NCBI GenBank assembly: GCA_029227655.1
Contig: JAQYAI010000006.1
Coordinates: forward strand, 2,098-66,097
Origin: a bacterium
GTDB taxonomy: Bacteria; Bacillota; Clostridia; Lachnospirales; Lachnospiraceae
Direction: 5' to 3'
Length of the DNA: 64,000 nucleotides
A program made the translations under genes and the position numbers. This document shows, one piece after another, positions 4,106 to 26,327 of the stretch. The notes beneath the pieces are model-generated. The model did no database searches and had not been told where the DNA came from. It was given only the letters and a program-made list of their open reading frames with translations. Within the stretch, counting starts at the first letter, position 1, and each line of letters begins with the position of its first letter.

Positions 4106-5188
4106 ATGAAACGTGTATATAATTTTTCAGCAGGACCAGCGGTACTGCCGGTCGAAGTTTTGAAAGAAGCAGCAGAAGAAATGCTTGATTACAAGGGAAC
4201 TGGAATGTCTGTGATGGAAATGAGCCATCGTTCAAAAGCTTTTGAAGAAATTATAACAGAAGCGGAAAAAGATTTGCGGGAACTTATGAATATTCCTGAT
4301 AATTATAAGGTGTTATTTTTGCAGGGCGGAGCAAGCCAGCAGTTTGCAATGATTCCGATGAATCTGATGAAAAATAAAGTTGCAGACTATATTATTACAG
4401 GGCAGTGGGCAAAGAAAGCAGCCGCTGAAGCAGAAAAATATGGAAAAGTCAACAGGATTGCATCTTCAGCAGATAAAACATTCTCTTATATTCCAGATTG
4501 TTCAGATCTTCCGATTTCAGAAGATGCAGACTATGTTTACATTTGTGAGAATAATACCATTTATGGAACGAAATTCCATGAACTTCCAAATACAAAAGGA
4601 AAGCTACTTGTAGCAGATGTTTCATCTTGCTTCCTGTCAGAGCCGGTTGATGTTACAAAATACGGAATTATTTATGGAGGAGTTCAGAAGAACATTGGTC
4701 CTGCAGGAACTGTCATCGTTATTATCAGAGAAGATTTGATTACAGAAGATGTTCTTCCGGGAACACCAACCATGCTTCAGTACAAGATTCATGCAGACGC
4801 AAAGTCTCTTTACAACACGCCGCCTGCATATGGTATTTACATTTGCGGCAAGGTGTTCAAATGGATTAAGAACATGGGCGGTCTGGAAGCTATGAAGGAA
4901 AGAAATGAGAAGAAAGCAAAATTATTATATGATTTCCTTGATCAGAGCAAGCTTTTCAAAGGAACTGTAGAGAAGAAAGACCGTTCACTCATGAATGTGC
5001 CATTCGTGACAGGAAATGAAGAACTGGATGCTAAATTTGTAAAAGAAGCAAAAGCAGCCGGATTTGAAAACTTAAAAGGACATCGTACTGTTGGAGGTAT
5101 GCGTGCAAGTATTTATAATGCAATGCCATATGAAGGTGTGGAAGCGCTTGTTGCATTTATGAAAGAGTTTGAGGAGGCAAATGCGTAA
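4106..5188 (+). CDS. serC: phosphoserine aminotransferase
   Basis: YNFSAGPA, EMSHRS, QKNIGPAG (PLP lysine) and GHRTVGGMRASIYNA motifs. Confidence 0.97.
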   Translation: MKRVYNFSAGPAVLPVEVLKEAAEEMLDYKGTGMSVMEMSHRSKAFEEIITEAEKDLRELMNIPDNYKVLFLQGGASQQFAMIPMNLMKNKVADYIITGQWAKKAAAEAEKYGKVNRIASSADKTFSYIPDCSDLPISEDADYVYICENNTIYGTKFHELPNTKGKLLVADVSSCFLSEPVDVTKYGIIYGGVQKNIGPAGTVIVIIREDLITEDVLPGTPTMLQYKIHADAKSLYNTPPAYGIYICGKVFKWIKNMGGLEAMKERNEKKAKLLYDFLDQSKLFKGTVEKKDRSLMNVPFVTGNEELDAKFVKEAKAAGFENLKGHRTVGGMRASIYNAMPYEGVEALVAFMKEFEEANA

Positions 5189-6351
5189 TGGAATATAAAT
5201 ATAATTGCCTGAATCCAATCGCACAGGTAGGATTAAAGGAATTGGGAGAAGGATTTACACAGACAGATAATATCAATGAAGCAGATGCAATTCTGGTAAG
5301 AAGTGCATCGATGCATGAAATGGAATTTAGCAAAAATTTAAAGGCAATTGGAAGAGCAGGAGCCGGAGTGAATAATATTCCATTGGAAAAATGTGCGGAA
5401 GAAGGTATTGTAGTATTTAATACACCTGGCGCAAATGCGAATGGAGTAAAAGAGCTTGTCCTTGCAGGATTGTTCTTAGGCGCACGTGATGTTGTGGGTG
5501 GAATTGAATGGGTCAAAGCAAACAAAGACGATGAAAATATTGCAAAATCAGCAGAAAAAGCGAAAAAAGCATTTGCCGGAAGTGAGATTATGGGCAAGAA
5601 GTTAGGGGTAATCGGACTTGGAGCAATCGGTGTTCTGGTCGCAAATGCAGCGGTTCATCTTGGAATGGAAGTTTATGGATATGATCCTTATATTTCTGTA
5701 GCTAATGCATGGCATCTTTCAAAACATATCAAGCATGCAAAAATTGTAGAAGAGATTTATAAAGAGTGTGATTATATTACAGTTCATGTGCCAGCACTTG
5801 CTGATACAAAAGGTATGATTGGTGAAGATGCAATCGCCATGATGAAAGATGGTGTGGTTGTTCTTAATTTCTCAAGAGATGTGCTTGTTGACAGTGCAGC
5901 GATGATCAAAGGTTTGCAAAGTGGCAAGGTGAAACGTTACGTAACAGATTTTGCAACACCTGAAATCGTCGATGTAAAGAATGCAGTAGTGATTCCACAT
6001 CTTGGAGCTTCTACAGCAGAAGCAGAAGATAACTGTGCAGTAATGGCAGCGGAAGAAATCCGTGATTTCCTTGAGAATGGAAATATTAAGAATTCTGTAA
6101 ATTATCCAAATTGTGATATGGGAGTTCGCAGAAAAGTCAGAATTACAATTTTGCATAAGAATATACTTAATATGATTGGACAGTTCACTGCAATTTTGAC
6201 AAAAGAAAATATCAATATCGCTGATATGATCAATAAGAGCCGTGGAGAATATGCATACACAATGCTCGATGTGGATTCAGAAGTTAAAGATACAGTTGTA
6301 GAAGAACTGGAAAAAGTAGAAGGCGTACGAAAAGTACGTGTAATAGCTTAA
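5188..6351 (+). CDS. serA: D-3-phosphoglycerate dehydrogenase with C-terminal ACT domain
   Basis: RAGAGVNNI, GLGAIG and PHLGASTAEAE motifs; start overlaps serC stop (TAATG). Confidence 0.9.
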   Translation: MEYKYNCLNPIAQVGLKELGEGFTQTDNINEADAILVRSASMHEMEFSKNLKAIGRAGAGVNNIPLEKCAEEGIVVFNTPGANANGVKELVLAGLFLGARDVVGGIEWVKANKDDENIAKSAEKAKKAFAGSEIMGKKLGVIGLGAIGVLVANAAVHLGMEVYGYDPYISVANAWHLSKHIKHAKIVEEIYKECDYITVHVPALADTKGMIGEDAIAMMKDGVVVLNFSRDVLVDSAAMIKGLQSGKVKRYVTDFATPEIVDVKNAVVIPHLGASTAEAEDNCAVMAAEEIRDFLENGNIKNSVNYPNCDMGVRRKVRITILHKNILNMIGQFTAILTKENINIADMINKSRGEYAYTMLDVDSEVKDTVVEELEKVEGVRKVRVIA

Positions 6352-19782: not shown

Positions 19783-19794
19783 TTGAGGAAATAT

Positions 19795-20268
19795 ATGAAA
19801 GTAAAGATTTATACAGATGGAGCAGCACGAGGAAATCCAGATGGACCAGGTGGATATGGAACTGTGCTGGAGTATGTAGATACCAAAGGTGAGTTACATA
19901 CCAAAGAAATATCGCAGGGATATGTGAAGACAACGAATAACCGCATGGAGCTTATGGCGGTAATTGCAGGGCTGGAAGCATTGAACAGACCTTGTGAGAT
20001 AGAACTTTATTCAGATTCACAGTATGTGGTAAATGCATTTAACCAGCACTGGATCGATGGATGGCTGAAAAAAGGATGGAAACGAGGGAAGAATGAACCT
20101 GTGAAGAATGTGGATCTGTGGAAAAGGCTTCTGAAGGCAAAAGAGCCACATCAAGTAACCTTTATCTGGGTCAAAGGACATGATGGTCATCCACAGAATG
20201 AAAGATGTGATACCCTTGCAACGACGGCAGCGGATGGTGATAATCTTATTGTCGATGAGGGAATTTAG
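19795..20268 (+). CDS. rnhA: ribonuclease HI
   Basis: [28 protein letters not shown] and NERCD motifs. Confidence 0.97.
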
Positions 20269-20291
20269 ACACAAATTAAAGAGAGAATATG

Positions 20292-20326
20292 AAAAAGATG
20301 AAACAATAAGGTTTCGTCTTTTTTTT
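20292..20326 (+). terminator. intrinsic terminator after rnhA
   Basis: AAAGATGAAAC/GTTTCGTCTTT stem followed by a T-run. Confidence 0.8.
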
Positions 20327-20469
20327 GTTATGCGACGAGGAAAATGGACATTTGACGACCGCTAATCAGAGCGAGATTCACAAAGCGTATCTCGTCTCTG
20401 TGCTCAGAGATTTCTGTGGAAGATATTTTGAATTTTTTTTCTTGAAAAATATCTGAGTTTCTCGATTTG

Positions 20470-20499
20470 TTGAAATGAGAGATTTTATGTGCATATAAT
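20470..20499 (+). promoter_or_regulatory. putative sigmaA promoter of the pilus operon
   Basis: TTGAAA-18 bp-TATAAT. Confidence 0.55.
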
Positions 20500-20556
20500 A
20501 AAGCCTACTCAGCAAAATATAGTCGAAGAAGGAGGAAAAGGGAAATTAAGAATTTA

Positions 20557-22614
20557 TTGAAACGGGGGACTGTACTTTTGATGTGTATGTTGATGGCTAT
20601 AAGTGCCGGAATGCTATTATTGCATGCGAATGCACAAGAGAACACAGTTTTAGCAGCAAGTGATACAGCAGCAGGAGAGGTATCATGCGGCAAAGTAGTA
20701 AGTGAAATTTCGGATTCCAGTATTAAAATTTCACTTGCAGAAAAGATTTCACTGAAAGAACTGGAAAAACAGTTTCCATCAGAAATGGAAGTAACACTCT
20801 TAGATGAATCAAAAGAAGTAATTCCAGTCACTTGGATCTGTGAAAGTGATTATGAGAATGAGGAGTATGATTCTTATGTATTTGAAATTTCATTGCCAGA
20901 CGGCTACGAAATGTCTGATACATGTTCATCTGCTTTTATTTTGGTTACGTTGGAGGGGTATGTAGAACCTGAAGTTCACCGGGTCTATGAAGCGAATCCT
21001 GATTCTACAATGACGATTGACAAGTATTTGGGAGCGGACAGAACACTTACAAGTCATTTGGAATACTATGAAAACACAAATTATTATTTAGGAACCAAGT
21101 ATTATGGGGGATTTTTAAGGACGGGAGCGGAAAGCTGTCTTGTTCCAAGGGGAGCGGTCAACTATAACGGTTCTACAAATGGAATGAATTGTACTGGTTT
21201 TGTGGCACGTGCTTTAAGAAGCGTGGGCGCCGATGTGACGAAAATTACTACACGTATGCAGGGACACTATGCCAATGCGTGTAATTGGAACGATTTTGTT
21301 GATACATATAATATTAAATCATACAGATTTACCAGTATTGCCTCCATGTTATCCAGTGGTGTTCTGAAAAAAGGGGATATTATTTACTTTGAACCAGATT
21401 GGAGCAGGGCTGATGACGATTGCCATATTGGAATTTTCTGGGGAGATACGTCCAATGAGGATAAATTCTGGCATTCGACAAGTACATACGATAATGCGAT
21501 CACAACAATTCAAAGTAAATCACCAATCTATTATATTTATGTTTTCCCGGTAAGCCATGAGACGGGTGACTTGGAGATATATAAGGAATCAGCAGATACG
21601 GAACTTACTGAAAGTATGCCTGATAAGTATTCTTTAGAAGGAGCAAAATACGGAGTATATTACAAGGACGAAGATTTTTCAGAACCGGAATATATTATAA
21701 CCACAGATAAAAACGGATATGGAAAAATATCAGGCATTCCATGGGGAAATTATTATGTGAAAGAATTGGAAGCTCCTAAGGGATTTAAAATTGATATGAA
21801 CTGGTATCCATCTGTGCCGACAACTACTACAGGTGTGGCTGCATATACTGTGAAAGCAAATGCTGTTGTCACAGTTCATCTCACAGATGAACCGGTCATA
21901 TACCCAAAGGGGAATGTGAAAATTGTAAAGAGTGGTGTACATCCTGATGATAAAGCAAATACCAGAACTCCGCTGGAAGGAATTCAGTTTGTTTTCAAGT
22001 CAAAATCAGATGGGAAGACGTATATAATAACAACCGATAAAGAGGGAAAAGCTTCGACGGAATCACTTGGTGGCCTTTTCATAGATACATACATTGTAAC
22101 AGAGAAAAATACACCATCAAATTATATTTCATGTGATTCCTTTGAAGTGACGATTACGGAAGATGCGCAAACACTATCGTATGATATTGATAATGAAGAA
22201 ATTGTAGCTGCAATTACAATCGTAAAAAAGGATGCAGAGACAAAAGAAATCATTGAAGCTGCTGGAACAAAATTCAGAATTCTAAATTCAAAAAAAGAAG
22301 TGATATTAGAAAATCTTATAACTGATGAAAGTGGAAGAGCAGAATTGCCGAAAAGACTTCCTTTCGGAACCTATTACTTGGAAGAAGTGGAAGCTCCGGC
22401 AGGATATTTAAAAGGAGAACTTCTAAAATTCACGGTAACAGAAAAAGCGGAGTGGGATTCGCCAATGATTTTAGAATATTATAACGAAAGAGGAAAGAAG
22501 CTTCCAGAGACAGGATCTGGAAGGATGATTAATTTGATGTTACTTGGTACTTTGCTGGTATTGGCAGCAATAACAGAAAAAAAGAATGATCGAAAAACAG
22601 GAGATAAAATATGA
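20557..22614 (+). CDS. sortase-anchored ancillary/tip pilin: signal peptide, Ig-like domain, NlpC/P60-like hydrolase domain, three SpaA/CnaB-like domains, LPETG
   Basis: YLGTKY..NCTGFV..KKGDIIYF..HIGIFWG..FWHS; E-box-like YYVKELEAPKGF and YYLEEVEAPAGY; LPETG plus TM and basic tail; true start may be ATT at 20545. Confidence 0.85.
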   Translation: MKRGTVLLMCMLMAISAGMLLLHANAQENTVLAASDTAAGEVSCGKVVSEISDSSIKISLAEKISLKELEKQFPSEMEVTLLDESKEVIPVTWICESDYENEEYDSYVFEISLPDGYEMSDTCSSAFILVTLEGYVEPEVHRVYEANPDSTMTIDKYLGADRTLTSHLEYYENTNYYLGTKYYGGFLRTGAESCLVPRGAVNYNGSTNGMNCTGFVARALRSVGADVTKITTRMQGHYANACNWNDFVDTYNIKSYRFTSIASMLSSGVLKKGDIIYFEPDWSRADDDCHIGIFWGDTSNEDKFWHSTSTYDNAITTIQSKSPIYYIYVFPVSHETGDLEIYKESADTELTESMPDKYSLEGAKYGVYYKDEDFSEPEYIITTDKNGYGKISGIPWGNYYVKELEAPKGFKIDMNWYPSVPTTTTGVAAYTVKANAVVTVHLTDEPVIYPKGNVKIVKSGVHPDDKANTRTPLEGIQFVFKSKSDGKTYIITTDKEGKASTESLGGLFIDTYIVTEKNTPSNYISCDSFEVTITEDAQTLSYDIDNEEIVAAITIVKKDAETKEIIEAAGTKFRILNSKKEVILENLITDESGRAELPKRLPFGTYYLEEVEAPAGYLKGELLKFTVTEKAEWDSPMILEYYNERGKKLPETGSGRMINLMLLGTLLVLAAITEKKNDRKTGDKI

Positions 22615-24416
22615 GAAAAAAATTTATAATTGGAATGTTAACATTTGTAATGGCTTTTTCGGGAATAGGTGTTCCAATGAATTGTACGCTGCTTTCTGCA
22701 CATGCAGCAGAAACGGGCATGCAGTCAGGAGTCATTAATTTTGGAAGAGGAACAGCAAGTATCACGATTCAGGGAAACACTGGACAGACGTTGATCGGGA
22801 AAAGATTCAATATATATAAGCTTTTTCATGCGGAGAATTCTGCCCATGGAGAATCTGTGAATTATACCTTCAATTCAGAATATAAAACGGCACTTCAGAA
22901 TCTTGTTGGAAAAGCCTTGTTAAAAACACCATCTCAGGTGACAGAATACGAGGTCATTGATTATATTCAAACGATGAACTCAAATGAAGTAGAAGGTGCA
23001 GATGCTTCACAGACACTGGAAGGGAGATATTCAGATTTTAGATATTTTGTGGAAGATTTGAGAGATGAAATCGTCAGGCTGGGAAATACCTCGGACACAG
23101 TGACGGTAACATCAGTGAGCAACAATAACAGCATTCAGATTGCCGGACTTGAGTATGGGTATTATATCGTAGATGAAGTGTCAGATAATGAAGGGACACA
23201 TTCAGCTTCATCACTTTGTATGGTGAGTACAGCTAATCCAAATGCATCAGTGAATATGAAATCGGACTATCCATCTGTAGTAAAGAAGATACAGGAAGAT
23301 GATCATAAAGATTCTATAGGAAATAATGGGTGGAATGATATCGGCGATTTTGAGATTGGGCAGATCGTTCCATATAAATTTGAGTCCAATGTTCCAAATA
23401 TGAATGGATATCATACGTATTATTATGCATGGCATGATGTGATGGATGATGCACTTACATTTAATAAGAATAGTGTATCCATCAGCATTTCCAATGGGAC
23501 AAAGGATTATGTATTGAAAGCTGATGAATTTATAATTTCGGAAAATACAGATGGTGAGACATTTAAGGTTGAAATTCATGATTTGAAAGAAATTGTTGAC
23601 AGAGAATTTGACAATATGGATGCACTTGGACACAATACTTATGGGCAGACAGTAATTTTGACGTACAATGCGATATTGAATGATAATGCGGCCAATGACA
23701 CAGGAAGACCAGGATTTGAAAATGATGTAAGACTGGAATTTTCGAATGATCCGGATGTGACAGGAGAGGGAAATACTGGGTTTACTCCATGGGATACAGT
23801 AGTTTGTTTTACTTATAAGCTGAATGTACTTAAAACGAACAATCATGATCAGCCACTTGAAAATGCAAAATTCCGTCTTTATTCAGATACGGATTGTACA
23901 GAAGAGGTTTACGTAAAGAAAGCAGAAAATGGGTATCATGTTATTAACAGGGATACATCCGGTGATACTACGCCGGATAATGCAGTAGAAATGTCTTCAC
24001 AGGAAGATGGAACGTTTATCATTTATGGACTTGATCAGGGAATCTATTATTTGAAAGAAACAGATGCTCCAGATGGATACAGAGCAATTCTTGATCCTAT
24101 TGTTCTTACAGTGGAACCAACATTTACAGCAGATAGAAATAATTATGTAAAGGGTGATGGTGCTACAGAGAAAACATTGCAGAATCTGGAATATTCAGCT
24201 TATATCAAACAATTCTTGAGTGGAACATATACAGAAAATCATAATACTTTAGAGACAGATGTAAAAGAAGGTTCTGGCAATCTTACGGTAATCAATCAGG
24301 TGGGCACCAAGCTCCCGGTAACTGGTTCTAGTGCAATGCTTGTACTATTAACATTAGGTGCAGGGGTAATGTTGGTGGCAAAAGTGATTCCTTCAGAAAA
24401 GAAAAAAAAGTCATAA
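22611..24416 (+). CDS. major (backbone) pilin, isopeptide-forming fimbrial protein
   Basis: signal peptide; pilin-motif-like VNMKSDYPSVVKK; D2-type domain ending ENDVRLEFSN; E-box YYLKETDAPDGY; LPVTG plus TM and KKKK tail. Confidence 0.88.
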   Translation: MRKKFIIGMLTFVMAFSGIGVPMNCTLLSAHAAETGMQSGVINFGRGTASITIQGNTGQTLIGKRFNIYKLFHAENSAHGESVNYTFNSEYKTALQNLVGKALLKTPSQVTEYEVIDYIQTMNSNEVEGADASQTLEGRYSDFRYFVEDLRDEIVRLGNTSDTVTVTSVSNNNSIQIAGLEYGYYIVDEVSDNEGTHSASSLCMVSTANPNASVNMKSDYPSVVKKIQEDDHKDSIGNNGWNDIGDFEIGQIVPYKFESNVPNMNGYHTYYYAWHDVMDDALTFNKNSVSISISNGTKDYVLKADEFIISENTDGETFKVEIHDLKEIVDREFDNMDALGHNTYGQTVILTYNAILNDNAANDTGRPGFENDVRLEFSNDPDVTGEGNTGFTPWDTVVCFTYKLNVLKTNNHDQPLENAKFRLYSDTDCTEEVYVKKAENGYHVINRDTSGDTTPDNAVEMSSQEDGTFIIYGLDQGIYYLKETDAPDGYRAILDPIVLTVEPTFTADRNNYVKGDGATEKTLQNLEYSAYIKQFLSGTYTENHNTLETDVKEGSGNLTVINQVGTKLPVTGSSAMLVLLTLGAGVMLVAKVIPSEKKKKS

Positions 24417-24434
24417 AAAGCCAGGTGTAGTTTT

Positions 24435-25304
24435 ATGAAAAAAGAACGACCGGCTTCGAAAAGAAAGATAGTAAAAGCAATCCTTTTCTTTGTTGGTCTG
24501 ATGATTTGTTCTTATCCTCTTGTCAGCAGTATTGTAGAGCAACGGCATCTTAAAGATGCTATTGCAACTTATCAGAAGCAAATAGAAGACTGTGATGAGA
24601 TTGATATGAAAACGGCAATGTCTCAGGCAGAGGAATATAATAGTGTGCTGTACCAGTCTGAAGGAAAAAATATCAATACTCCTTTTGGTGAGATACTTCG
24701 TTCTGAGAATTATAATAGTCTGCTTAATTTGACGGGAAATGGAATCGTGGGAAGTGTTGAAATTCCTAAAATCAGTGTAAATCTACCTATATACCATGGA
24801 ACGGATGAAGAGGTACTGACGATAGGAATTGGTCATGTTGAAGGAACAAGTCTTCCTGTGGGTGGAGAAAATACCAGGACGGTACTTGCAGGTCACCGGG
24901 GGCTTCCAAATTCCAAGTTATTTACAAGACTTGATGAATTAGAAACAGGAGATTTCTTTTTTATAAAAGTTCTTGATGAGGTCTTGGCGTATGAAGTGGT
25001 AGATATTGAAGTTATTGAACCGGAAGACATAAGTAAATTAGAGATTGTTCCGGAAAAAGATCTTGCAACATTATTGACCTGCACACCCTATGGTCTGAAT
25101 ACGCACCGGCTGATCGTTACAGGTGAAAGAGCAGCTTATGATGAGATAGAATACCAATCAATAAAAAAGGAAATGATGTCTTTCAGAGAACTGTTTTTTG
25201 CAGTTATGCCGTTTGTGTTTGCTGTGATTGGAATTGGAACAGTTATAAGAAATAGAAAATCGAAAAAGATAAAGTTGAAAAGGAGGGGAGGGAGACGTTT
25301 ATGA
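24435..25304 (+). CDS. srtC: class C (pilus) sortase
   Basis: LAGHRG and TLLTCTPYGLNTHRL motifs; N- and C-terminal TM segments. Confidence 0.95.
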   Translation: MKKERPASKRKIVKAILFFVGLMICSYPLVSSIVEQRHLKDAIATYQKQIEDCDEIDMKTAMSQAEEYNSVLYQSEGKNINTPFGEILRSENYNSLLNLTGNGIVGSVEIPKISVNLPIYHGTDEEVLTIGIGHVEGTSLPVGGENTRTVLAGHRGLPNSKLFTRLDELETGDFFFIKVLDEVLAYEVVDIEVIEPEDISKLEIVPEKDLATLLTCTPYGLNTHRLIVTGERAAYDEIEYQSIKKEMMSFRELFFAVMPFVFAVIGIGTVIRNRKSKKIKLKRRGGRRL

Positions 25305-25930
25305 AGTTGGAAAAAGTATATGGTGCATTTGTGATATGCTTTTTACTGGTTATTCTGAGTGCCTTACCGGTTTTGGCAAGTGATTCTTTGGAAGATAGAG
25401 GAAATATTGGCAGTATCACAATAAGGCTGGAAGATACGAAAAATAATTGTCCAAAAGGTGATGTGCATATAATTGCAGCAAAAATTGCAGAGATAGTAGA
25501 TGGTGAATATGTATTACATAGTGGGTATTCAGATACAGGAATTGACCTGAATGAAATCAAGAATGCAAATGAACTTGCAAGCGCAGCAGAGAAACTGGAA
25601 CAATTAAAACCTGAAGGAATAGAGGTAGTTACAGATTATGATGGGGTAGCTATAATTACGGACCTTTCGGCTGGGATGTACCTGGTATATGCCTGTGATG
25701 TTGCAGAATATGAAAATATTATGCCATCCTTAGTGCCAAACCCTATGTGGAATGAAGAGAAAGGAAATATGGTGTATGATATTGAAATTCTAGCGAAACA
25801 TGCGCCGGATTTAGAAAGTCCAGGCACTCCGCAGACTGGAGATGGAAATCGTGCATCTTTTTATGGCATAACTGTGGCAGGGGCATTACTTTTTGCCGGG
25901 AGTTGTCTTTGGATGAAAAGGAAAAGGTAG
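25301..25930 (+). CDS. small basal/anchor pilin
   Basis: signal peptide, single SpaA-like domain (GSITIRL..DLSAGMYLV), TPQTG plus TM and KRKR. Confidence 0.75.
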   Translation: MKLEKVYGAFVICFLLVILSALPVLASDSLEDRGNIGSITIRLEDTKNNCPKGDVHIIAAKIAEIVDGEYVLHSGYSDTGIDLNEIKNANELASAAEKLEQLKPEGIEVVTDYDGVAIITDLSAGMYLVYACDVAEYENIMPSLVPNPMWNEEKGNMVYDIEILAKHAPDLESPGTPQTGDGNRASFYGITVAGALLFAGSCLWMKRKR

Positions 25931-25933
25931 AAC

Positions 25934-25962
25934 TTTACAAAAAAAGTAAAATGTGATAAAGT
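25934..25962 (+). promoter_or_regulatory. sigmaA promoter of rnpB
   Basis: TTTACA-17 bp-TAAAGT with upstream TG. Confidence 0.6.
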
Positions 25963-25967
25963 ATTCG

Positions 25968-26317
25968 GAGCAAGTAAGACAAATGTTCGCGGCTGCAGGT
26001 GCCGAAAGGCCGCAGGTGAGGAAAGTCCGGGCTTCATAGGGCCGGATGCCGGATAACGTCCGGTGGAGGCGACTCCAAGGAAAGTGCAACAGAAATAAAC
26101 CGCCTGCTGATGCAGGTAAGGGTGGAAAGGCAGTGTAAGAGACTACCGCCCATCTGGTAACAGAAGGGGCATATGTAAACCCCATTCGAAGCAAGACCGG
26201 AAGAAAGCAATGTGGCTGCCCGTCACGCTTTAGGTAGGTCGCTTGAACCTGCTGGTGACAGCAGGTCTGGATAGATGAACATTCACGACATAACCCGGCT
26301 TATCGTTTTGCTTGCTT
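25968..26317 (+). ncRNA. rnpB: RNase P RNA (bacterial, probably type A)
   Basis: GAGGAAAGTCCGGGC, GAAAGTGCAACAGAAA and ACATAACCCGGCTTAT universal motifs; P1 helix GAGCAAGTAAGAC/GTTTTGCTTGCTT. Confidence 0.97.
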
Positions 26318-26327
26318 AAAAGCAAAA

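Follow-up and report, generated by a model that had tools for sequence, protein, structure and literature searches.

What would a sortase-assembled pilus do with an enzyme fold at its tip? The question is raised by a 64,000-nucleotide (nt) stretch of the Lachnospiraceae-type genome assembly GCA_029227655.1 (82% complete; contig JAQYAI010000006.1, positions 2,098 to 66,097), here called the window. Between positions 20557 and 25930 it carries an intact four-gene operon, all on the + strand, for a tip-type pilin, a backbone pilin, a class C sortase, and a basal pilin. A complete pilus operon had been described here in an earlier reading of the sequence (the original prediction), and all four open reading frames (ORFs) and their motifs lie where that reading had placed them. 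The tip gene (20557 to 22614; 685 amino acids (aa) from a TTG codon) codes for a signal peptide, an immunoglobulin (Ig)-like domain, an NlpC/P60-like head, three CnaB/SpaA domains, and an LPETG sorting motif. We give about even chances to the reading that the pilus is an outward-facing contact module, which binds and cuts the wall of a neighbouring cell.

The head comprises residues 150 to 335 (21004 to 21561, + strand; residues are counted from the TTG at 20557 despite a probable start upstream) and is predicted, from model and profile, to be a cysteine peptidase or amidase of the 4EYZ subfamily. An AlphaFold model of the head, built on 26 relatives, has a predicted local distance difference test score (pLDDT) of 92.8. 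Its top structural match is 4EYZ (Z 17.3, root mean square deviation 3.1, 176 residues aligned, 28% identity), with NlpC/P60 and CHAP enzymes next at Z about 9-11, and a Foldseek match of the head has an expectation value (E) of 2.5e-9. The catalytic residues are aligned in the profile alignment to 4EYZ (E 1.3e-20), which pairs Tyr182, Cys212, His290, and His306 with Tyr71, Cys109, His215, and Gln230; the roles of the 4EYZ residues, including the oxyanion tyrosine, are taken from the structure report (PMC3573020). The papain-like NlpC/P60 fold of the modelled head, proposed by the original prediction together with an intact Cys212/His290/His306 triad, is clear despite Pfam scores below the cut-offs. 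The CHAP profile (PF05257) gave 20.4 bits for the head, under its cut-off of 26, and weak matches to 14 of the 26 aligned relatives, and the NLPC_P60 profile matched 17 of these relatives at E up to 0.05. According to a review, 4EYZ belongs to the NlpC/P60-CHAP-amidase cluster under DUF2272 (PMC10318531); DUF2272 was not matched in our Pfam scans. The possibility that a thioester domain had been misread as an enzyme was rejected, as the tip shows no TED_2 match, a TED profile score of -0.8 bits, and no [YFLW]C motif in its first 400 aa.

The codons of the triad are TGT at 21190-21192 (Cys212) and CAT at both 21424-21426 (His290) and 21472-21474 (His306, the third residue, replaced by Asn, Ser, or Gln in some relatives). 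Tyr182 (21100-21102) is likely the oxyanion-hole tyrosine, a position with Tyr in 82% and Phe in 14% of 345 aligned rows. The Cys-His-polar triad, the oxyanion tyrosine, and a GD motif, all signs of the superfamily, are thus recognizable from the alignment to 4EYZ and from conservation. A library-wide search with the head yielded 421 representatives at E <= 0.001, and the best 150 of the 421 were examined. A Cys-His-(His/Asn/Ser/Gln) triad is kept in 140 of 142 domains with less than 70% identity to each other, the two exceptions being one Gly in place of Cys and one domain cut short. It is also kept in all eight pilus-linked tip rows, and Cys-His-polar occurs in 158 of 158 complete stalked rows, many of which are near-identical alleles. 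This near-universal retention disfavours a dead enzyme that serves binding only, and the purely non-catalytic peptidoglycan-binding adhesin that had also been considered is therefore unlikely. Between the head and its orthologue in L145, nonsynonymous (dN) and synonymous (dS) divergence amount to 0.31 and 1.94, the latter near saturation. As a separate observation, Cys289 (21421-21423), which adjoins the catalytic histidine, is kept in 82% of the rows and is a possible disulfide partner or redox switch; its co-occurrence with Cys194 is weak (both in 38 rows, only one of them in 60 and 8, neither in 35), and the rows of kin are non-independent.

Related operons show what else can occupy the position of this head. 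Cassettes were gathered by a search with the backbone pilin, and 14 were compared (L222, nearly a copy of L212, was not counted). Some of them came from four of 80 metagenome loci. At E <= 1e-80 the backbone was found in 5 of 400 genomes of the family and in 1 of 113 from a second family of the order, it was matched strongly in 2 of 15 other genomes of the genus, and it was absent from the 349 other scored genomes of a class-wide sample (one more was unscored). Six of the 14 cassettes bear the enzyme head (the window, G414, L145, L146, L212, and L260). A Pfam TED_2 head scores above the cut-off in three others (L230, L233, and L236), the heads of L235 and L225 match a profile of TED_2 heads at E 1e-6 to 1e-7, L237 and L234 have a TED-like cysteine motif only, and no tip gene was found in L238. 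The head of L234 (7875-10151), with a WCAD motif, lacks a Pfam match, is unmatched by the thioester profile, and may represent a third head type. Beyond the six cassettes of this family, the enzyme head also occurs in a pilus cluster unrelated to it (L036).

Below the heads the tips are alike. The stalk of the window's tip (21562 to 22485) consists of three CnaB/SpaA domains (three Pfam SpaA matches and three E-box-like motifs), and stalks of orthologues range from no domain to three or more. Mobile enzyme-tip stalks share 36-46% identity over about 500 aa with thioester-tip stalks, the match beginning at the end of the head; for the window's own stalk the identity is 24-29%. Upstream of the head, the all-beta Ig-like domain (residues ~46-131, 20692 to 20949; beta strands in the model) is Big_4-like, with weak Big_4 matches in orthologues and 40% identity over 48 aa to the corresponding domain in the thioester-like tip of L235. 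A single clade of enzyme-tipped cassettes was rejected by approximately unbiased (AU) tests, with p 0.00023 for the backbone tree and 0.00025 for the sortase tree; the six cassettes had been named before the trees were built, and two long branches were present. In a quick tree of the heads, those of the enzyme-tipped cassettes are scattered as well. As the enzyme-tipped cassettes do not form one clade, the heads have been swapped repeatedly. Moreover, tips without a stalk, in which the head directly precedes an xPETG motif, exist with the enzyme head (G414; L035:8428-9501) and with a thioester-like head (L237:8292-9110), which leaves the head as the retained part. A different arrangement is found in L225 (9082-13557), where one gene of 1,492 aa joins a thioester-like tip and its stalk, in frame, to the complete backbone pilin, with the genes for sortase C and the basal pilin next in line; here each shaft subunit would bear a head.

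The same exchange is seen away from pili. The enzyme domain is present in 15 of the 16 genomes of the genus, and in 12 of the 16 it heads a stand-alone protein, arranged as head-CnaB(-TQ)-VxTGD and encoded just before leuC or thrC. At that site G404, the only genome of the genus without the domain, has a TED_2-headed protein whose C-terminus is closely similar (43% over 110 aa). The three genomes whose head is borne on a pilus have an empty site: about 100 nt separate the upstream gene from leuC in G000, and in G414 and G403 the flanking genes are likewise adjacent. No genome of the 16 has a pilus-borne and a stand-alone head together. Judged from these gene arrangements, the head swap with thioester adhesins occurs both at the pilus slot and at the stand-alone stalk gene.

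That thioester domains take precisely this place at two different kinds of locus would also suit a covalent tether, in which the acyl-enzyme at Cys212 breaks down slowly or passes to an amine, and the pilus, substituting a thioester adhesin, stays hooked to its target. In NlpC/P60 chemistry the glycan side retains the acyl half, and a tether would need the triad that is conserved here. In addition, the authors of 4EYZ did not detect protease activity and found an acetate-like, that is acyl-like, adduct on the catalytic cysteine in the crystal (PMC3573020). However, an acetate adduct is also named in the structure title of the active E. coli Gsp amidase 3A30 and may be an artefact of preparation, fusions of the domain to amidase and muramidase suggest ordinary turnover, and the sequence bears no mark of slow deacylation. 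We therefore consider a tether unlikely, although among the alternatives to a wall-cutting head it survives best.

Which bond a cutting head would attack is indicated in part by what it lacks. The pocket for gamma-D-Glu in DL-endopeptidases is formed in YkfC by Tyr226, Trp228, Asp237, and Ser239 (PMC2954226). By motif alignment the tyrosine is kept in the head, and Gly184, Asn211, and Thr213 replace Trp228, Asp237, and Ser239; Asn211 is found in 99% and Thr213 in 83% of the 345 subfamily rows. Since this pocket is not kept, the release of NOD2-active muropeptides envisaged by the original prediction is without support. Peptidoglycan is nevertheless the likeliest substrate, because the domain is fused to amidase, muramidase, and L,D-transpeptidase domains: Amidase_2 with GW modules (P0069) and a GH25 muramidase (P0087) among 40 chosen relatives that were scanned, and YkuD in another relative (L061). 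Many relatives bear GW, SH3, SLH, ChW, or choline-binding modules, and the nearest Atlas clusters, queried with P0003 (99% identical), are NlpC/P60, CHAP/Amidase_5, and endolysin-like.

The head might instead cleave, deamidate, or cross-link a glycoprotein of the host or its diet, or a surface protein of another cell. Thioester tips of pathogens reportedly bind host proteins. This possibility is favoured by the absent gamma-D-Glu pocket, by structural matches to transglutaminase and deamidase folds at Z 5.5, by frequent fusions to ricin-type lectin repeats and dockerins, which leave room for other substrates, and by the origin of 4EYZ from a cellulosome-linked protein (PMC3573020). Yet the structural matches that follow 4EYZ, at Z 9.5-11, nearly all carry titles of peptidoglycan or cell-wall peptidases, and the direct fusions involve three kinds of wall enzyme; a substrate outside the wall thus seems slightly less probable still than a tether.

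If peptidoglycan is the substrate, it might be the producer's own, with the head clearing a path for the growing pilus or aiding cell separation or biofilm release. The tip crosses the wall of the producer first, G414 has a stalkless version, stalkless relatives include autolysin-like architectures, and no immunity gene accompanies the operon. However, thioester tips with no hydrolase serve the sister pili that share this backbone, and stand-alone relatives, with lengths reaching 2,700 aa, hold the head at the far end of their stalks and hence outward. We regard action on the own wall as improbable, a step below a substrate outside the wall.

A head that acts on a neighbour's wall has to be displayed, and the sorting signals of the operon bear on this point. 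Two classes were found. Signals of tips and backbones read [L/M/I]PxTG[S/T/N] and lack a Pro-rich linker, whereas those of basal pilins and stand-alone relatives read PQT[G/N] or xxTG[D/V] and are in most cases preceded by a Pro-rich linker. The LPETG of the window's tip (22501-22515; LPxTG[S/T/N], without Pro-rich linker) belongs to the backbone class, as do the signals of all 12 tips of the cassette family. The tip has no conserved pilin lysine, as conservation does not extend to the YPK at residue 448, and G414 lacks a stalk. In Actinomyces, a sorting signal alone can direct a protein to the pilus tip, according to PMC11389406. Because of its backbone-class signal the product of the first gene is inferred to sit at the tip, and homology likewise supports the location originally proposed. 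It is very improbable that the protein is instead anchored singly to the wall and only incidentally part of the operon, as most stalked relatives are stand-alone wall proteins but this one is encoded by the operon's first gene, overlaps the backbone start by 4 nt, carries a backbone-class signal unlike the VxTGD of those relatives, and holds the same position in six cassettes and a second pilus family.

The remaining genes fit a pilus of this type. The backbone pilin (22611 to 24416, 601 aa) matches GramPos_pilinBB, SpaA, and TIGR04226 above the cut-offs, ends in LPVTG (24312-24326), and has an E-box at residue 479. Its pilin lysine is likely Lys217 (codon at 23259) in a KSDYP motif that recurs in 12 of 12 related backbones. 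The sortase (24435 to 25304, 289 aa) is assigned to class C by NF033745 (270 bits; cut-off 160). Its lid (24676-24684) reads TPF, and the sortase of L036 has DPF at the aligned place; the lid motif is usually DPF, DPY, or DPW. The basal pilin (25301 to 25930, 209 aa) carries TPQTG (25826-25840) after a Pro-rich linker, and a lysine at 25796 in a (P/A)KH motif that is found in 10 of 10 related basal pilins.

Several relatives of the operon are mobile. The L260 cassette is followed by genes for a second sortase, Maff2, PrgI, a VirB4-like ATPase, a CHAP-lysozyme, and a relaxase. VirB2-like and PrgI genes are found downstream of L212/L222, and L146 is plasmid-like, beside a resolvase, a RepB-like gene, and ParA/ParB. 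Cassettes with non-enzyme tips (L230 and L234) are found on similar conjugative elements, and stand-alone enzyme-headed stalks on elements as well (L060, L223, and Enterococcus records such as L066). These Enterococcus records (L066, L069-L074) have the enzyme head on a TQ stalk with LPQTS, and L066 is part of a Tn916-like arrangement that includes Rep_trans, sortase, glucosaminidase-M23, and TcpC genes. The sortase-C cassettes of L230, L234, L260, L212, and L146 stand at the front of conjugation clusters or by plasmid-like replication genes, with a second sortase after the cassette in L230, L234, L260, and L146, and such cassettes are candidates for a Gram-positive mating pilus of gut Clostridia. 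A thioester-CnaB adhesin is required for efficient mating of pLS20, and its cysteine is essential (PMC8092201). In PLSDB the domain had one match, in Collinsella, and the backbone none. Relatives of the head are frequent: one mobile tip protein is recorded on 133 contigs, and the public names of relatives cite only pilin repeats. A phage origin of the head was rejected, as no relative was found in IMG/VR or INPHARED and only 3 of the 26 relatives matched the commonest PHROG family, and these weakly.

The proposed contact module would work as follows. Sortase C would join the LPETG of the tip to Lys217 of the backbone, the shaft would then grow, and the basal pilin would be anchored to the wall by a housekeeping sortase. 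Upon contact, Cys212 would attack a stem-peptide or lactyl-amide bond with a CHAP- or amidase-like specificity rather than at gamma-D-Glu. On conjugative elements this might serve contact with the recipient or a loosening of its wall, and the chromosomal copy of the window may have been domesticated to serve cell-cell contact, competition, or scavenging. The producer would be spared by distance or specificity: as the original prediction had noted, neither flank contains a plausible ORF for an immunity protein, and no immunity-like ORF is shared among the enzyme-tipped loci. A bolder version, which we consider possible but would not expect, holds that thioester and NlpC/P60 domains are interchangeable reactive-cysteine warheads on a "mating and grappling" pilus. 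The head would hook covalently, via its acyl-enzyme, into the peptidoglycan of the touched cell and then open the wall; on elements it would be a donor device that breaches the recipient wall, and here a captured chromosomal contact weapon or tether.

Several observations count against a wall-cutting contact module, besides the altered gamma-D-Glu pocket and the lack of detected protease activity in 4EYZ mentioned above. The NLPC_P60 profile (PF00877) scored 19.5 bits for the whole protein and 22.6 bits for the domain, under its cut-off of 23, and a measured activity for any member of the 4EYZ subfamily was not found in a literature search whose scope left out most subscription journals and supplements. 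The choline-binding, ChW, SLH, GW, and dockerin modules that accompany the domain mostly anchor proteins to the surface of their own producer, and an autolysin fits them equally. The complementary pattern of pilus-borne and stand-alone heads in the genus is suggestive only, as the genomes are kin and some of them are incomplete. None of 80 loci from GTDB and 4 of 80 from metagenomes have a sortase C gene beside the domain, so that linkage to a pilus is the minority state. Enzyme-head relatives were not found in the phage collections IMG/VR and INPHARED. For a role in conjugation, genes of that function were not seen by ORF inspection of the 64 kb around the window's copy, which is chromosomal. 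Besides the enzyme-tipped pilus, the G554 element retains a CHAP-lysozyme gene after VirB4; the donor-side hydrolase is therefore not replaced by the tip. Inactivation of the pCS1-1 sortase had little effect on transfer (PMC5770547).

If the contact module is real, the pilus tip would be a modular contact payload in structures, the sortase pili, that have so far been treated as adhesion fibres, and the orphan structural family 4EYZ would be tied to a concrete job. It would also offer direct tests of how Gram-positive donors find and cross the wall of a recipient, and of whether gut Lachnospiraceae attack or harvest the walls of their neighbours on contact. An enzyme-headed sortase pilus appears to be new, in line with the original prediction, whose author knew of no characterised pilus of this kind: within the literature scope given above, neither an NlpC/P60- or CHAP-headed pilin nor a TIE-like protein with such a head was found.

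The operon itself is not an artefact of assembly. A contig of 5,653 nt from the independent run X6 covers 20362-26014 with seven differences and spans the whole operon, which rules out a chimera, and 96-97% of the operon words are present in 12 runs from four studies (possible source samples left out; the gut runs are from animals, and a pig gut label is found only among the possible source samples). Contigs from the RNA library X17 match eight pieces, including 21034-21333 and the tip-backbone junction, and may themselves be of DNA origin. The cassette is an insertion between an rnhA-like gene (19783 to 20268, + strand), which we take to be such from its sequence motifs, and the RNase P RNA gene rnpB (25971 to 26318, + strand; Rfam RF00010, 293 bits). 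In genus relatives these genes abut: of the 14 other genus genomes with rnhA, 13 have it no more than about 80 nt from rnpB, G414 being a rearranged exception. Three lineages, their synonymous sites near saturation, have retained the cassette next to rnpB. A terminator of rnhA (20291-20324) is followed by a candidate sigma-70-like promoter, TTGAAA-18-TATAAT (20470 to 20499, + strand), which has the top score of 26 regional sites with 11 of 12 positions matched and is a consensus match only. Between the two, a 60-nt element (~20343-20402) recurs on contigs C27 and C121 (93-95%); its depth is raised about five- to tenfold in two metagenome runs, its hairpin z is only -1.5, and it is possibly a small dispersed repeat or insertion scar. 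Elsewhere in the assembly, contig C75 of G000 (176-2030 and 4645-5328) encodes another class C-like sortase, which lies together with an LPQTG protein at one end of the contig, and a shorter sortase, possibly the housekeeping one.

The tip gene is an ORF at 20557 as predicted, but the TTG start assumed there is probably wrong. An AGGAGG ribosome binding site and an ATT codon at 20545-20547 (together 20530 to 20547, + strand) are indicated by conservation in orthologues: the pattern AGGAGG-AAA-NNN-GAA-ATT is kept in all three chromosomal copies (the window, L145, and G414), and the homologue P0008 has Met at the position of the ATT. Translation thus likely starts at this ATT, 9 nt after AGGAGG. 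Tip genes of mobile cassettes, unlike the chromosomal copies, start with ATG. An ATT start could lower the output of a subunit needed once per fibre. Where it is missed, gene callers shorten the signal peptide of the tip.

The pilus can be compared with several known systems. No adjacent immunity gene was seen, in contrast to contact-dependent toxin-immunity systems. DL-endopeptidases (YkfC, MepS, LytE, CwlO, and SagA) and CHAP amidases share the fold, the non-permuted Cys-His-His order, the GD motif, and the oxyanion tyrosine with the head, which differs from the DL-endopeptidases by N-C-T-G-F and N-A-x-x-W motifs, about 60 additional residues, and the missing Trp, Asp, and Ser of the gamma-D-Glu pocket. 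The N-A-x-x-W motif presumably recalls CHAP domains. The VirB1-like wall hydrolases CstB1 and TcpG are NlpC/P60-type enzymes on conjugative elements, like the mobile enzyme tips, but are membrane-anchored and linked to the channel (PMC5770547). The closest relative by structure, the NlpC/P60 module of RflaF_05439 from Ruminococcus flavefaciens (4EYZ), is of the same subfamily with aligned Tyr, Cys, His, and polar residues, and is displayed on the surface via a sortase-anchored scaffold; it differs in its tandem domains on a dockerin, the absence of a pilin, and Gln instead of His as third residue (PMC3573020). Heterotrimeric sortase-C pili (PMC13721041, PMC11389406) share the tip, shaft, sortase C, and base as well as the CnaB stalk, LPxTG, pilin lysine, and E-box, and their SpaC and PitA are among the structural matches of the full-length tip. 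They carry a thioester or vWA adhesin where the predicted pilus described here has a papain-like enzyme fold. A location on mobile elements, typical of conjugative mating-pair adhesins, is seen in L260 and L212/L222, with L146 plasmid-like, and not in the copy of the window. The full-length tip finds its top structural match in the TIE protein 6FWV. TIE proteins, which include the mating adhesin of pLS20, combine a reactive-cysteine head, a CnaB (and TQ) stalk, and a location on conjugative elements, as found here; the pLS20 protein is neither sortase-anchored nor on a pilus (PMC8092201), and the Cys-Gln thioester of the TIE proteins stands against the Cys-His-His of the enzyme head.

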